Assembly: GCA_036867785.1 (NCBI GenBank) | Contig: CP145409.1 | Location: forward strand, 1,116,001 to 1,180,000 | DNA from: Plasmodiophora brassicae | Lineage: Eukaryota | DNA length: 64,000 nt | Direction of reading: 5' to 3' | Shown here: positions 3,938 to 54,218 of the stretch, in pieces | How the letters are laid out: every line of letters begins with the position of its first letter | Position numbering within the stretch: the stretch's first letter is position 1 | Program-made: the position numbers and the translations under genes | The notes under the pieces: generated by a model | The model's database searches: none | Seen by the model: the letters and a program-made list of their open reading frames with translations, nothing else | What the model was told of the DNA's origin: nothing

Positions 3938-4371
3938 GGGGGGACTTGTGATGTGTATTTAACACGCTTAAGCGGCGAATGCAACGAGCTGGTCGTTGCA
4001 GCTGCAGCTGGATCGCTGATCTAGCGCAATGGTATTTAACACGCTTAAGCGGCGAATGCAACGAGCTGGTCGTTGCAGCTGCAGCTGGATCGCTGATCTA
4101 GCGCAGGCGACGAAGGTGAAGGCGGTGGGCGATCAACGGACCAGCTTCTGACGCAACGACCAGTTCGTTGCGCTCGGCGCTTCAGCGTGTTAATGCACTT
4201 TACAAGTCCCCCCCCCCTGATCCAGCGGCAGCCGCAACGCTTCGTCGTTGCATTCGCCGCGTTAGCCTGTGTTAATACACATCACAAGTCCCCCCCCTGC
4301 GCTAGATCAGCGATCCAGCTGCAGCTGCAACGACCAGCTCGTTGCATTCGCCGCTTAAGCGTGTTAAATAC
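3938..4371. mobile_element. MITE/foldback-like cluster: five related units (2 direct, 3 inverted) with GGGGGGACTTGT termini
   Basis: Identical 74-bp units at 3955-4028 and 4032-4105; exact reverse complement at 4298-4371; diverged inverted copies at ~4130-4217 and ~4219-4297, both ending ACAAGTCCCCCCC. Confidence 0.8.
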
Positions 4372-5299
4372 TCTATTCCCATATTTATCATGTTGGCGAT
4401 GATAGGACAGGGCGGCTCTATGGACCGAACGCTACGACACTCAGTCGGCGGCTGGATCGGAGAAACACGTTCGACCAGTTGCCGTTGGGCTCGGCTACAA
4501 CAGCTGCCCAGGTGAAACCATTCGTGACCGCATGGCGCTATAAAATCGAGCGACGCGTCTCACCATCGCTATGCTTTGAATGGGAACGCCATCACGCTCA
4601 AGCATATTACCCCTTACGACCTACAAGGACAAGAAGTTAAATCAACCGGTCCGTACAGTTATACATTGAAGGAAGAGTAGTTGCGAAATCAGCTCAAATG
4701 CATTCTTCCACGAGAATAGTGTCAGAACAGATCTTGGTAAAATTGTAGAGTCATCATGAAACGAGAATGCTTTTTCAACCAACGACACGTACATTCGCAT
4801 GATCTGGCAAGATGCCGGCCGTCCGGCCATCGTTCGAGGTGACGACTGACGGCAGACCGGAGACCGCAACTCCGCCACGCAATCCGCGCAATGCTTTCGC
4901 CGATATTAGCGCCCCGTCATATACTCTCCTTGCTGTAGATAACCGCAGCTTCACGTGGGGCGTCGCCGTTTCCAGCGGGACGTTAGTCGCGATCAAACAT
5001 GCTCCAGTTGCTGGTATTCAGTCAAGTCATCATAGACGGTTCAGTATTGTGGCTCGCTGGACTTTAGCATTCGGTACACGGCTGGCGATTATCAGATATC
5101 GATGATGCTACCGCCAACAGTTTGCCATTGGTTATGTGTTGCCCGGCGGGGCTCGGTATATTTACTTGTCTCGTTTCCTGCATCAATGTGCTGCTGTCCT
5201 GGGCTATATTGTATTTAGAAATAGGAAGGATGAACGGGTTTACCACTGTGGTGACGTGGCAAGACCGACGTCGTCGAGGAGACGGGAAGGATAAACGGC

Positions 5300-5650
5300 A
5301 TCGTGTTATTGGCTCTTGTGACAAGAGTCTGCAAACAAAGTACTATAGTGCGCTCAGCTACGTACCACCCCCAGGTCGACGTCTTCATTTCACGAGCGTT
5401 TGACCATTGCATCTGTCGCCACTCTGCCATGGCATGGGGCCCGGAAGGCGCGAACGTCTGTGACGTCAAGGGCTCTGCTGACATCAGCATCCTGTCGCGC
5501 GCTAGCTGCTATCGTGGCCTAGTTGGGCGGTGCGGGATGCGACGATCAAACGCTCGTGAACGTGAAGACGTCGTAGACGTGGGGGTGGGACGTAGTGCGC
5601 ACTGTAATCCCTTGTATGCACACTCTTGTCGCAATAGCCAATAGAACGTT
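5300..5650. repeat. Degenerate long inverted repeat (decayed foldback/MITE)
   Basis: 5302-5413 aligns with the reverse complement of ~5536-5648. Shared blocks: TATTGGCT, GACAAGAGT, AGTGCG, CTACGT.CCACCCCCA, CGACGTCTTCA, TTCACGAGCGTTTGA. Confidence 0.8.
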
Positions 5651-5882
5651 TGTATCCCTCCCACCGCGTCCCAGCGTCTCCGAGTAGACTGCCGGTGAAA
5701 CACGAATCGCAGTGCCGACGCACCTGACGCATGATCGGAGCAAATGGCACTCGCCCAAGTCCATCCGCACCAGCGAATCCATCAATCGCATCGCCTGCGT
5801 GGGCGCGGCATACACGTCAGACACTGCAGGCAGCAGCCGTTGCAGGATAATGGTTTCGGGATTGGACCGCTGTGACTGGGCG

Positions 5883-47472: not shown

Positions 47473-49710
47473 TTAGTGGCTGTGGTCGTCGTTGGTTTTC
47501 GACAAGAGGTAGTGCTGGTGCTCAGGGCGCTCGTCACAACGGACGCGGACGTTGAGCTGTTTCATGACGCCTGGGCACGGGTCCTCGCCGAACGACTCGT
47601 CGTTGGCCTCGATCCAGCAGGAATGCTCGCCGAGGCAGTTCTGCTCGATAACGGCCTGCGACGTCACCGCGTGGCACCCTCGGTCGATGACGTCGCCGTC
47701 CGGCGTGCCGTACGACGCGAACACGACCTCGGTGATGACCTGCGACGGCTTCGGGCACGTGAACAGCCCGACGACCGCGTCGCTCGTATCGGTATGCGTT
47801 CCATGCGAGTGATGCCGTTGCCGCATCGACAGCGCTAAGTCCGCGGTGTGACGCGGCTTGCAGCGCGCCACGACCCGCAGCTGCTTCGTAACGCTTGGGC
47901 ACGGGTCCTCCGGGTGGAACGCATCCCCTGGGCGGTCATCGGACGCCGCGAACGTGCACTTGTGCTTGCCGATGCAGCGGCTCCACACAACGGACATGGA
48001 GCGCGGGTGGTGGCACGTCGGGTTGATCGTCCTGGCCAACGGCGAGCTGTGCGCGACGGGCGCGCCGAACGACGCGAACACGATATGGTCGATAACCTGC
48101 CCTTCAGCGCACTCCAACGAGAACTCGTCGTCCTCGCCGGCCATGACCAGCAGGTCGTCGTCGCCGCGGGTGCTGCACCTGGCGACCGCACGAAGCTGTT
48201 TCGTCGTGGTCGGGCACGGGTCGTGGACGCTGCCGAACACGTCGGTGCAGTGGTCATCGCCAGCCACGAACGAACACGACTGGCGACCGACGCAGCGGCT
48301 CCAGACGGCCTCCATCGAGTTCGGGTAGTGGCACTTCGGGTCGATTGTCGTGAATCGCGCCGGGGTCGTCGCCGGCGTCCCGTACGTGGCGAACTCGATG
48401 CGGTCGATGACCTGGCCTTGCCCGCACTGCAATGTGAACGTCTGGTCCTCGGCGGCGGCACCGTTGACGGTGACGTCGAGCGACGGATCGCACCCCTCCA
48501 GGCATCGATGCTCGGTGCACTCCGCGAGCACGTTCATGTGCTTGTGGTCGAACGGGCACGGGTCGCCCAGGAACGCATCGTTCCAGGCGACAATGCTGCA
48601 GTTACGTTGGCCAACGCAGGCGCGTTCCACGATCGGCAACGCATGCGGCGAGTCGCAGACGGCATCGGGCACGCCACCCTTCGGCAGGCCGAACGACGCG
48701 AACAGGATCCGGGAGATGACCTGGTCGGGTCGGGGGCACTGTAGGAGCAACGGGGCAGCATAGCGCCCCTGGCCGCTGCACGACTCGTGGACGAACTCGT
48801 CAGCGAACCCGGCAACGACGACGCCGTAGTCGTCGGGGCGACGTCCGCATCGGGCGACGACGACCAGCGCGTTCGTGCCCGATTGCGTTGGGCATGGGTC
48901 GGCGAACAGGGCGGCCGGATCGCCAATGGTGCATGAGTGCTGACCCACGCAGGCGCCGTACACGACGGGCGTCGACGTCGGGTGATGACAGTTCGGGTTC
49001 ACGATCGGGTCGCCTTGGTAGGTGGTCGGCTGCCCGTACGACGCGAACTGGATCTCCTCGATGATCTGGTCGTTCTCGGGGCAGGTCAGCGTGAACGGTG
49101 AGCCGGCGTTCGCCGAGGCACTGACGATCGCCGAACATTCGCTGGACGGGTACTCGCAGATCGGTTGTGCCAACGCCTTCGTGCCCTCGCAATCGGTGGC
49201 GTCGTGCGTCATGAACTCGGCTTCGGTGACGAGGATGGAGCACGACGTGTGCCCGGCGCATCGGTTCCAGAGGACGTCCTTGGCGTTGGGCGAGATACAC
49301 GCCGGGTTGTCCATGACGACCGAGTCGATACCGGTGATGACCTTGCCGTCGCCGCATGACATGGTGAGGACCGTTGGTGGTGGAGGCCCGCACACGAACG
49401 TGATCTCCAGCTCCTTAAGGCGGCCAGAGCACGTTTCGCCGAAGACGGCGTTGGTCGCCGACACCTTGCAGGTATGCTGGCCTAGGCACAGGCTTGATAC
49501 AATCTGCACCTGCTTCTTCGCCTGGGCGTTGGACAACGGGCAGAAACATGCCGAATACGACACGGTGGCGATCCCGGTGATGACATTCTTCGCTCCCGGA
49601 CACGTCAGGACGGCAACGCTGTTCTCGACCGCTACTGCTACGCAGGCATCCGCTCGACGTCCCAACGCGGCCGCCATGATGACCACCAGCAACGCCATCA
49701 ACCTTGCCAT
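47473..49710 (-). CDS. Secreted multi-domain SUEL/rhamnose-binding (Gal_Lectin) lectin, 7 repeats, intronless
   Basis: Signal peptide MARLMALLVVIMAAALGRRADA; repeated L.C..G.VI..I.FAS[YF]G...C.G...C.....F.DPCP...K.L.V...C. Confidence 0.9.
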   Translation of the reverse strand: MARLMALLVVIMAAALGRRADACVAVAVENSVAVLTCPGAKNVITGIATVSYSACFCPLSNAQAKKQVQIVSSLCLGQHTCKVSATNAVFGETCSGRLKELEITFVCGPPPPTVLTMSCGDGKVITGIDSVVMDNPACISPNAKDVLWNRCAGHTSCSILVTEAEFMTHDATDCEGTKALAQPICEYPSSECSAIVSASANAGSPFTLTCPENDQIIEEIQFASYGQPTTYQGDPIVNPNCHHPTSTPVVYGACVGQHSCTIGDPAALFADPCPTQSGTNALVVVARCGRRPDDYGVVVAGFADEFVHESCSGQGRYAAPLLLQCPRPDQVISRILFASFGLPKGGVPDAVCDSPHALPIVERACVGQRNCSIVAWNDAFLGDPCPFDHKHMNVLAECTEHRCLEGCDPSLDVTVNGAAAEDQTFTLQCGQGQVIDRIEFATYGTPATTPARFTTIDPKCHYPNSMEAVWSRCVGRQSCSFVAGDDHCTDVFGSVHDPCPTTTKQLRAVARCSTRGDDDLLVMAGEDDEFSLECAEGQVIDHIVFASFGAPVAHSSPLARTINPTCHHPRSMSVVWSRCIGKHKCTFAASDDRPGDAFHPEDPCPSVTKQLRVVARCKPRHTADLALSMRQRHHSHGTHTDTSDAVVGLFTCPKPSQVITEVVFASYGTPDGDVIDRGCHAVTSQAVIEQNCLGEHSCWIEANDESFGEDPCPGVMKQLNVRVRCDERPEHQHYLLSKTNDDHSH

Positions 49711-50097
49711 TGTTATGCTCCTGTCGATCTCTCTCGTTGAGAAAAAACGTCTATTTGGGAATGTTGGGTTGGATCGTGCAGGCGTCGCGTGTCCTATGGG
49801 GTAGCAGACGAGAAGCACGCGCTCTTATCCAACCGAAACGAATCTTGAGTTCCAGATTCGGCCGCCGATCCTGGCGTGCGTGCCATCGGGCAGGAATCCA
49901 TCGCCGAGCTGCCAGTATGGCGACCCTGAACTCGGGTTACCCTTGACCAGCGTCAGGGCTTGATGCAAAGCGACGTCCCAATAACAAACGTCTCGACCGA
50001 ACAATTGTCGTCCAGTCACGTGACGAAGTCATGCGCGGCAAAAACCAGCCCCTCGACTCCATTCGACCGCATTCGGTATATTTTACGTCCAGTGGGA

Positions 50098-51126: not shown

Positions 51127-52263
51127 TCAATCTATGACCATTCCTGGCGTGGCTACGTTGGCTGTTGAGCCCGCCGATGAACGCAGCGCATCATACTTCT
51201 TTGCATCGTCGTTCGACGTTATGCCGTATCCTGGCTCGCTTTCTGCCTTGTCAAAGTCACCAGCTGCTGCGCCCGCGACCTTCGCAAACCCGTCGTCGGC
51301 TGCTCTATGATCATCCCATTCCAAACGCAATGCTGTGAGTATCAGCCTTTCCAACTCGTCGTCGTCGACATTGATCGTCTTCAGCAATGCTGTCGCTGAC
51401 GTAAAAGGCATCTTGACAATAGCAGGCGCTACGCTCTGTACATAAGCGATCGCGAACCGATACACCCATTCTTGGCCCTGGTGCATGATGAACGCGACGT
51501 CGAACAGTCGAGCGCACTGCCTGACAGGCAGGGCGTAGGCAAACATGGTCAAGAACCATGGCGTCCCGTAACAGAATGGCTCAATGCCTTCTTCGCCAAA
51601 GTACCGCCGGACATCTGGAAGCTTCGACGATATCAGCTGTCCGAGGGTCCTTAGGCACGCTTGAAGCTGGTCCAGGCCGTCAACGTAGAGTGCCTTCATG
51701 TTTAGTCGCTCCATGAAGGCCACGACGATCCAGAACGCCATCTCTTCGTCGTCGCACACGAGCAGGATAAGGCCTGTCACTATGTTCATGCCCTGAACGT
51801 ATCGTACGTCTTTGCCAAGACGATCGGCGAGTGCGTTCAGCAAGCGCGTGAGCTGACCTCGACCTGGGCCTGTAAAGAACCGGTGGTCGGAATAGGTTCG
51901 CGGCACGTCGACCTCAATCTGCCGTATCACTGATTCGTCCTGGTGAGCATTGAAGTATGATGCATAAGATCGCGGTGAGCTGGCCCGGAGGGATGATGCT
52001 CCAGATGCTAACAGCCAAATCGTCGAGCGACATTCGCACGGAATGCCTTTGGCTAATAGGCGCTGTACGGCGACAAGGTTTGATACGCGCCAGTGGTCGA
52101 CAGTCTTCTCAGAGATGGCGATTTCACGCCATTGCAGTGCAAGCTGCGCATCAGCAATGGACTGAATCGTTAAGCGCGATAAGGTGATCGGCGCCACGTT
52201 CGGCACCCTGAATCCGTACTCGTCGAGGAGCGTCACGGCCACCTTTTCTGGGACCAGCTGCAT
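51127..52263 (-). CDS. TBC-domain Rab GTPase-activating protein
   Basis: LDEYGF; KGIPCECRSTIW; QIEVDVPRT; YVQGMN; EEMAFW; PWFLTMFA; RLFD. Confidence 0.9.
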   Translation of the reverse strand: MQLVPEKVAVTLLDEYGFRVPNVAPITLSRLTIQSIADAQLALQWREIAISEKTVDHWRVSNLVAVQRLLAKGIPCECRSTIWLLASGASSLRASSPRSYASYFNAHQDESVIRQIEVDVPRTYSDHRFFTGPGRGQLTRLLNALADRLGKDVRYVQGMNIVTGLILLVCDDEEMAFWIVVAFMERLNMKALYVDGLDQLQACLRTLGQLISSKLPDVRRYFGEEGIEPFCYGTPWFLTMFAYALPVRQCARLFDVAFIMHQGQEWVYRFAIAYVQSVAPAIVKMPFTSATALLKTINVDDDELERLILTALRLEWDDHRAADDGFAKVAGAAAGDFDKAESEPGYGITSNDDAKKYDALRSSAGSTANVATPGMVID

Positions 52264-52478
52264 CTGCTCTCGTTCGGGATGCACTGCAACATCGTTGTCT
52301 GCGCAACGACAATGGCATGCCCCCATGCACCGACCTTCCCCTATTGCAGTCCAAATTATCAAGCACAGGCGTACGTTGCGATCGCAGGCTGAAATAGTCT
52401 ACAGTAATCCCACCCATCTTGTTAGTAGAAACAGCCTTGAGGGTGCACCTTTGGACGGTTCCACAGGGTCACGGGTGC

Positions 52479-53456
52479 GTGTCTTGACTCCCCCCTCGAC
52501 CGGACATGGTCGTCTGACGCAGCCGATTCTTTCTCGGAGCTCCTCGAACTTGATCTTTCCCAGGGCTTTGGTGAAGATGTCCGCGAGGTTATCACTGGAG
52601 CGCACATACGAGATTCGCAATTGGCCGTCAGCCACTTGGTCCCGGACGTAATGGTGTCGGATGTCGATGTGCTTCATCTTACTGTGGTTCACAGCGTTGT
52701 TGGCGAAGGCAATAGCACCTTGGTTGTCAACGAAGAGGTCCGTCGGATGGGTTTGTGGAAAACCAATTTCGCCGAGGACAGACCGTAGCCAGACTGTCTC
52801 AGCCGCTGCTTGGGAGGATGCCACCGTTTCCGCTTCACACGACGACAGGGCCGTCGAACGTTCCTTTTGTGTCTCAAACGTATCCTGCGCTACCTCAACG
52901 GCACCCGTGACTACGGTCTACTCTACCGTCGTACACCAAATCAAACCGACCCTGTCCTCCAGGCGTACTCCGACTCTGACTGGGCTGGAGACCTTGACAC
53001 TCGACATTCCACCAGCGGCTACATTGTCTTCCTGAACGGCTGCCCCATCTCGTATAAGACAACAAAGCAACGTTCGACGGCCCTGTCGTTGTGTGAAGCG
53101 GAAACGGTGGCATCTTCCCAAGCAGCGGCTGAGACAGTCTGGCTACGGTCTGTCCTCGGCGAAATTGGTTTTCCACAAACCCATCCGACGGACCTCTTCG
53201 TTGACAACCAAGGTGCTATTGCCTTCGCCAACAACGCTGTGAACCACAGTAAGATGAAGCACATCGACATCCGACACCATTACGTCCGGGACCAAGTGGC
53301 TGACGGCCAATTGCGAATCTCGTATGTGCGCTCCAGTGATAACCTCGCGGACATCTTCACCAAAGCCCTGGGAAAGATCAAGTTCGAGGAGCTCCGAGAA
53401 AGAATCGGCTGCGTCAGACGACCATGTCCGGTCGAGGGGGGGGGGAGTCAAGACAC
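52479..53456. mobile_element. Ty1/Copia LTR retrotransposon RT-end/RNase H/PPT fragment arranged as an inverted duplication
   Basis: + strand: LKRILRYLNGT...AYSDSDWAGD..TRHSTSGY...KQRSTALSLCEAE...DNQGAI...KHIDIRHHYVRD...DNLADIFTKAL, then GAGGGGG(G)AG. Segment 52479-52862 is the reverse complement of 53069-53456. Confidence 0.95.
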
Positions 53457-53529: not shown

Positions 53530-54218
53530 ATGACCACCAGGTTTGCACGAACTGGGAGCCACTGCGTCCGCAACCCAACCGGCAAGGGTCCTGCCCACCT
53601 GAACAAGGTCGCATTCAAGCATAATGACAACAGTGGATTGTCCAAATTGATAATGGCAATTCCCATCCGAGGGGTCTGCGCACGATGCTACGACATTATC
53701 GGTGCAGCTGGTGCCGCGCCACCTGTGAACCGGTCTGACATGTCTTTGCAGAGTGGAAGAAGACGTTTCGGAAGTATAAGCCGTTGCAGAAGGCGCGTCG
53801 ATGCGATTCCTGTCGAGCAGATTCGGTCACCGCCGCGTACATGGTCATCTGCGACCCCTGCGGTAAACGCCTGCAGTGCTGTACAAAGTGCAAATCAAAG
53901 TTCAGCGAGACATGCCGACTGAAAGAGACCGAATGCGAGACAGCGGCTACCCCAGACGAGATCGAGAAGGCTCTTGCGGGCTTTAAGGAGCGTCGCCGTC
54001 GCGCAATGACAAGAGCAATCGAGAACGGCAGCATGACGCTGGCGCAAGTTCTGGAGATGTGCGATTCCGTTGGCAACCTTCGTATTCGGAATCTGCCGCC
54101 GAAGACACCACCGTCTGATAACGATGAAGACGCTGGTTCCACGGAAGGGTCCGTTGAGAGCGATGCACCGTCCGATGACGGTTACGCCCGCTATAATCGC
54201 GAAGACGTTGATAAATGA
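53530..54218 (+). CDS. C9orf85/DUF2039-like Cys-rich protein
   Basis: HLNKVAFKHN; GVCARCYDII, intron, EWKKTFRKYKPL; CDSC...AYMVICDPC...CCTKC. Confidence 0.85.

Follow-up and report, generated by a model that had tools for sequence, protein, structure and literature searches.

A near-perfect inverted repeat of retrotransposon sequence between two host genes raises the question of whether the repeat is a source of hairpin RNA and, if so, what that RNA could silence. The repeat lies in a 64-kb window (the whole stretch of Plasmodiophora brassicae DNA that was analyzed, 64,000 nucleotides), and a repeat scan of the window returned it as the longest inverted repeat, with 391 nt at 98% identity. 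The sequence-only reading had placed it between divergent genes encoding TBC (minus strand) and DUF2039 (plus strand) proteins, with the DUF2039 ATG at 53530, and this arrangement was confirmed. Both genes are transcribed outward from the repeat. The features are listed in Table 1.

Table 1. Features of the fold-back locus, its neighboring genes and the coordinate anchor (window positions)
Feature	Positions	Strand	Content
Pb-miR030 precursor hairpin (coordinate anchor, outside the element)	5298..5652	-	Inverted repeat holding the published miRNA
RabGAP-TBC gene	51127..52398	-	Stop-to-stop frame, first ATG 52326; PF00566, E 3.3e-42
Left junction patch	52436..52472		LTR-matching 11-mer 52436-52446, small local hairpin, 5 bases extending the spacer match
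Extra LTR bases, left side only	52473..52478	-	6 bases beyond the right side's end; match to the C2 and C20 relics
Left arm	52479..52874	-	RNase H region, polypurine tract 52488-52497, LTR stub; coincides with PHAS21-241 (transferred coordinates)
Fold-back junction microhomology, 2 nt	52873..52874		Window compared with the C2 relic
Spacer / hairpin loop	52875..53056	+	RT end, RNase H start; in the 197-nt gap between the phased loci (transferred coordinates)
Right arm	53057..53456	+	RNase H region, polypurine tract 53434-53447 (G-run 10), 9-nt LTR stub; coincides with PHAS21-240 (transferred coordinates)
DUF2039 gene, two exons	53530..54218	+	PF10217; intron ~53702-53751 read from GT-AG and frame

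The arms had been described as reverse complements of ~385 bp (52479-52862 and 53069-53456) that differ at two substitutions and in a G-run of 6 versus 10 G, and the same differences were found here, with the substitution pairs at 52841/53090 and 52816/53115. Alignment with the closest relatives, however, extended each arm by ~12 nt toward the spacer (to 52874 and 53057), which added three substitutions (52863, 52868, and 52869) for five in the refined arms and reduced the spacer from the 206 bp given earlier to 182 nt. The spacer does continue the same element, as had been proposed: together with the right arm it forms a single open frame with the RT end and RNase H, which is 62% identical over 183 amino acids to the RT end/RNase H of an intact element. 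The frame's 3' end is a polypurine tract followed by the first LTR bases, and both outer ends of the repeat stop 9 to 15 nt past the LTR start. Neither gag, integrase nor an RT core is present in the fold-back, in agreement with the earlier description. Since the arm frame has no match in Pfam and none in PDB, its identity as Copia type is taken from the domains of a relic on contig C20 (see below) and from the 62% match to the intact element. On these similarities, the whole fold-back traces to the 3' end of an element of Copia type. Computed folding of either strand produced a ~400-bp stem, as expected of a long-stem hairpin endo-siRNA locus, with predicted energies of -892 (plus strand) and -906 (minus strand) kcal/mol. 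Both mismatches of the core arms (n = 2 only) become G-U pairs on the plus-strand transcript.

Zhang et al. 2026 (PMC13547706) described phased 21-nt siRNAs in P. brassicae, with two AGOs, no Dicer, and no RdRP, and reported that a Drosha-like enzyme, PbDRL, dices long dsRNA into 21 nt. In the available text of that paper, the origin of the dsRNA that feeds the siRNA pathway is stated to be unknown, and a palindrome is mentioned once, for miRNAs. Its Table S6 lists 435 phased loci, given only as coordinates in the authors' own assembly of another isolate, without reads, abundance, strand, or stage. The coordinates were transferred by using published miRNAs as anchors for orientation and offset; all four published P. 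brassicae miRNAs that were tried match the genome exactly. Pb-miR030 matches exactly at window positions 5622-5642 (minus strand), with its partner at 5308-5328 (2 mismatches), and the offset is fixed to ~10 nt by the length given for its precursor, which is that of the duplex with 20 nt added. Pb-miR031 matches exactly at C1:846906 and places contig C1 reversed in the authors' Ctg_2. The expected position of the locus was written down before the rows of Table S6 there were inspected.

Two rows of Table S6 correspond to the locus. PHAS21-240 (P 1.7e-4) transfers to 53075-53442, the right arm, and PHAS21-241 (P 6.4e-6) transfers to ~52456-52877, the left arm, while the spacer falls in the 197-nt gap that separates them. 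These P values are modest next to the many Table S6 loci listed at 0, and reads from one arm of a perfect repeat also map to the other. None of the 234 miRNAs listed in the paper's available tables falls within the arms, as judged by eye. The coincidence lends indirect support to the view that the arms yield phased 21-nt siRNAs, as the arms of Mu killer do, here through the phased loci of another isolate.

A second exclusion of the loop was found at a relic of the same family on contig C2. With the offset taken from miR007, PHAS21-11 transfers to C2:1508791-1509141, and the runs of the relic that are identical to the arms cover 1508789-1509139, so that they differ by no more than 2 nt from the ends of the phased locus. 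PHAS21-11 omits the adjacent 123-nt run of the relic that is identical to the spacer. Reads from the hairpin stem that also map to relics would limit phasing to the arm-matching part of the C2 relic. On the C20 relic, if the contig orientations agree, PHAS21-187 lies within the longest of the runs identical to the arms. The machinery for such processing is present: the genome search found two Piwi genes in tandem, in line with the two AGOs of PMC13547706, and four RNase III matches, the dicing activity on long dsRNA being taken from that paper. No RdRP was found by a PF05183 search of the genome, which was run without a positive control. The best explanation of these data is that the repeat is an endogenous hairpin-siRNA locus built from a captured retrotransposon fragment, and we consider this very likely.

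The sequence-only reading had gone further and proposed a hairpin-RNA silencing trigger, a "Copia killer" acting on a whole family. To see what such siRNAs could match, we searched the genome (25.28 Mb, 20 contigs) for relatives. The DNA search with the repeat found two close relatives, both 97% identical. The one on C2 is a 5'-truncated piece nested inside a Gypsy-like element, and the one on C20 (97% identical to the arms) is a copy with stops and deletions which carries PF07727, PF00665, PF13976, and PF25597, that is, an aspartic protease followed by integrase and RT of Copia type. The parent family thus has RVT_2 with an upstream integrase, RNase H, a polypurine tract, and an LTR, the layout of a Ty1/Copia-type element. 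Further DNA relatives are a diverged solo LTR on C16 (78%) and a fragment on C2 (75%). Among the 77 matches of the protein search, the best that remain once the two in the window and both relics are set aside are 62 to 64% identical, and no frame longer than 400 amino acids exceeds 64% identity, so that no intact family member was found among them. The full-length parental copies which a genome-wide search with the arm was expected to reveal are therefore represented by relics only. Two intact elements among the 62 to 64% matches, members of sister families, carry identical LTRs. Perfect 21-mers of the arms occur in the two relics (233/382 and 248/382) and in neither sister (0/382 each); with up to 2 mismatches, the sisters have 7 and 0. 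By this computation, the family's own dead relics are all that the siRNAs would match.

Of the proposed trigger, the part that stands is the coincidence of the arms, and not of the spacer, with published phased loci; silencing of an intact family does not, since this genome holds no intact member and the intact sisters are too distant for perfect 21-mers. No active cognate element silenced in trans, such as Mu killer has, was found in this genome, and the locus is not filed as a killer because it lacks an active target. Today the locus preserves the memory of an extinct family; it is no demonstrated silencer of a family still active.

It is conceivable that the hairpin dates from a time of activity of the family and, by silencing it, brought about or sped up its extinction; in other isolates, intact copies may be under its repression even now. 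This account is compatible with the captured-fragment explanation and adds a causal claim to it. Consistent with it, the family now consists of relics only (C2 truncated, C20 with stops and deletions, C16 a diverged solo LTR), the relics retain many perfect arm 21-mers, and the two sister families that escape perfect matching keep intact copies with identical LTRs. However, the correlation comes from a single family, and the genome holds no intact target for the hairpin siRNAs. The C20 relic has a fold-back of its own (the miR214 precursor), and fold-backs are common, so that the hairpin may have followed the decay of the family. We regard such a killing as unlikely. A general form of the idea, that the capture of transposon fragments as fold-backs at breaks immunizes the RdRP-less, Dicer-less rhizarian genome so that families with perfect hairpins die out, with this locus having extinguished its Copia family and the sisters below the 21-mer limit staying mobile, appears equally doubtful.

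Several relics of Copia type lie beside other fold-backs. The 5' end of the C20 relic is capped by a 250-nt fold-back (C20:559752-559999) that holds Pb-miR214 exactly. A more distant Copia RNase H fragment on C17 (~280718-280997) forms a 96% fold-back flanked by two more inverted repeats, and older long-armed inverted repeats lie beside related relics in the stretches L067 (2971-5551, on C16; 83%) and L018 (2002-3296, on C2; 80%). Three tandem Copia matches on C1 (1517675, 1527658, and 1537641) are spaced by 9,983 nt, and Pb-miR029a-c are likewise spaced by 9,983 nt in the assembly of Zhang et al. 2026.

In the captured-fragment explanation, a promoter would read through both arms, the simplest candidate being divergent transcription from the TBC/DUF2039 promoter region that the insertion split. 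The read-through transcript of either strand would fold into the ~400-bp stem, which PbDRL would cut into phased 21-nt siRNAs according to the model of PMC13547706. The repeat could instead be an inert repair scar that is silent, with phased reads that only map here and are produced by antisense transcription of a relic or by another copy. Arms and relics do have long identical runs in common, both host genes are directed outward, and transcription of the repeat is something that we infer. Against this, the C2 phased interval ends at the arm limits and omits both the adjoining spacer-matching part and the upstream parts of the relic, a pattern that, within the transferred coordinates, only a hairpin source explains simply, and the genome has no other close copy. 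We therefore judge the silent scar to be less probable still than a family killer. In run X8, the contig depth was 104.7 on the TBC side, 13.6 in the arms, and 6.8 in the spacer, and DNA runs showed the reverse; these depths were given no weight, as it is a guess that X8 is an RNA run, its contigs carry no strand or level, and DNA is possibly present in it.

The junctions of the repeat bear on how it was formed. The inner junction has a 2-nt microhomology. At the left junction, the sequence-only reading had seen an 11-bp match between 52468-52478 and the reverse complement of 52901-52911 as a hint of template switching. The match is real, although the continuation of the parental LTR already accounts for 6 of the 11 bases. 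The LTR is also matched by another 11-mer at the left junction, and such matches were obtained for 18 and 15 of 19,611 draws of random window stretches (~1 in 1,000 each). The spacer and LTR 11-mers of the left junction thus exceed chance, which strengthens the hint, and the left junction patch was probably templated during insertion. No target-site duplication of 5 to 6 nt was found at the repeat's ends. The microhomology, the two 11-mers, the small hairpin, and the missing target-site duplication together fit fold-back synthesis and capture at a break. In this scheme, a 580-nt 3'-terminal stretch of a Copia-type element would have been copied back on itself at the 2-nt microhomology, and break repair, not integrase, would have joined the copy into the short intergenic region.

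The same ends make it very improbable that the repeat is a mobile fold-back or miniature element ending in LTR stubs. The repeats are terminal and inverted, with outer ends 9 to 15 nt from the LTR start, as such an element would have, but the ends are unequal, they lack a 5- to 6-nt target-site duplication, the architecture is single copy where several dispersed copies would mark a mobile fold-back in this genome, and the site is identical in divergent isolates.

The presence of the repeat in other isolates was examined in sequencing runs. At least half of the sampled sequence words were contained in 20 of the 23 runs listed, from 8 studies, and contigs of 4 runs (four studies) were aligned to the left flank, left arm, and spacer. 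The TBC flank continues into the arm in the contigs of all four runs, the fold-back junction is bridged in three, and the right junction is present in two. Contigs of X1 and X7 cross the fold-back junction by at least 30 nt on either side with 0 differences; X17 crosses it by 30 and 108 nt, and X8 by only 7 nt. The DUF2039 flank is joined to the arm end in X1 and X17. Features specific to the right arm were also recovered, namely the long G-run in X1 and the base at 53090 in X1, X7, and X8. No loose end of the kind expected from an empty site was among those listed for the 4 runs. Fold-back reads are a familiar artefact of long-read sequencing. A palindromic or chimeric assembly is nevertheless a negligible possibility here: although no contig examined spans the whole structure, the junctions (left in 4/4, fold-back in 3/4, and right in 2/4 runs) and the right-arm-specific bases come from independent runs, and the independent assembly behind Table S6 has a matching arm-gap-arm span by its listed coordinates (987 versus 984 nt). 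The inversion is genuine.

The locus had also been called young. This does not hold, since X17, with 30 differences in 909 nt (3.3%) of the TBC flank, still has the same three junctions, which makes the repeat older than the split from X17. As a gauge of homogenization between the arms, the arm-arm difference (5 in 396 nt) is smaller than the flank divergence of X17 and close to the 3 differences in ~205 nt that X17 has in or near the spacer. X17 also has a 13-nt deletion in the arm at 52585 at ~2x single-copy depth (both arms or other copies). In X7, a C2-type contig over 52873-52958 has ~2x single-copy depth and is possibly from an extra family member.

To find out whether the locus is a single case, we asked how many other phased loci of Table S6 lie on local inverted repeats. 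A locus was counted when at least half of it lay on the arms of a local inverted repeat, with the same anchor-derived offsets. On C1, 14 of 25 other phased loci were on such repeats (10 separate structures), against 1.4 expected, and on C2, 10 of 22 were, against 1.0 expected, together 24 of 47 against ~2.4. The expectation came from shuffles within the same windows, with maxima of 7 for C1 (10,000 shuffles) and 6 for C2; loci paired on one repeat are not independent in this test. PHAS21-229 to -234 (C1) and PHAS21-17 to -23 (C2), for which the offset is unverified, were counted as misses, and PHAS21-11 was excluded from the C2 count because it is on the relic of the window's fold-back. The edges of many phased loci and repeat arms agree to ~20 nt.

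At the transferred positions of the remaining 23 of the 47 loci, no local repeat was found. PHAS21-244 is single copy and without a repeat, so that hairpins are not the sole source of siRNAs. PHAS21-243, which is without a local repeat, has a 94 to 98% identical inverted pair on C16. A near-perfect 1.4-kb hairpin at C16:370226-371629 is 94 to 98% identical to a DUF7869 frame at C1:910257-910939, which is itself a phased locus, and this is likely a second case of hairpin siRNAs matching in trans. When 82 frames from 13 other phased regions were searched against Pfam, three matches resulted (RVT_2, DUF7869, and a weak PhyR). As far as transferred coordinates can tell, the results support the view that the window locus is one of many putative fold-back siRNA loci in the P. 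brassicae genome and suggest that this organism, which lacks RdRP, draws much of its dsRNA from fold-backs. We think it reasonably likely that they are a main dsRNA source of its phased siRNAs.

Loci of this type are already known from yeast and maize. In Naumovozyma castellii, the palindromes include Ty fragments. This yeast has RNAi without RdRP, and its palindrome hairpins are the most prolific siRNA source, with 74% of the wild-type siRNA reads (10.1101/2019.12.12.873604). The likeness is that inverted repeats give hairpin siRNAs in an RdRP-less pathway; in contrast, N. castellii belongs to another supergroup and makes siRNAs of 22 to 23 nt with a non-canonical Dicer, versus 21 nt and a Drosha-like enzyme here. 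Hairpin siRNAs from partial inverted transposon duplications are also described for Mu killer (PMC3440606) and for Ac/Ds composite insertions (10.1101/2020.01.07.897926). These share with the present locus a partial inverted duplication of transposon sequence, taken from a coding region and adjoining host genes, and siRNAs that match in trans. However, they derive from DNA transposons by aberrant transposition, whereas the source here is an LTR retrotransposon, and they are read from a flanking or element promoter, whereas both neighboring genes here point outward. For them, heritable silencing of an active element was shown; here, the genome has no intact target, and RdRP is reported to be absent.

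Distant inverted insertions in yeast repair mutants (PMC11724301; median 150 bp, gaps of 30 to 119 bp) resemble the fold-back in having two inverted copies of one donor, short microhomology (2 to 11 nt), and insertion at a break without a signature of transposition. The fold-back differs from them in its ~400-bp arms, its 182-bp gap, and its retrotransposon donor, and break repair would be the corresponding mechanism here. Among openly accessible papers, none was found that links P. brassicae phased loci to inverted repeats. The available text of a pangenome preprint (10.64898/2026.10.14.759018) has none of the terms "inverted," "hairpin," and "small RNA," and that of PMC6823432 mentions palindromes only for mitochondria.

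Within the limits of the transferred coordinates, the locus connects two published phased siRNA loci with a fold-back of transposon origin whose loop is excluded and which matches relics in trans. It makes the question of the dsRNA source, left open by PMC13547706, testable with existing reads, and turns the fold-backs of the P. brassicae genome into a class with evidence behind it. It also bears on the processing of hairpin constructs for RNAi-based clubroot control.

Two further observations were made elsewhere in the window. Positions 3955-4371 hold nested direct and inverted copies of a 74- to 76-nt unit with short C-runs, possibly a small repeat family, and by eye a stretch at ~4158-4178 is one mismatch from the listed Pb-miR200. 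A 783-amino-acid frame at 47473-49824 (minus strand) has a hydrophobic N-terminal stretch and contains about six repeats, each ~105 amino acids long and rich in cysteine, which we take to resemble galactose/rhamnose-binding lectin domains.
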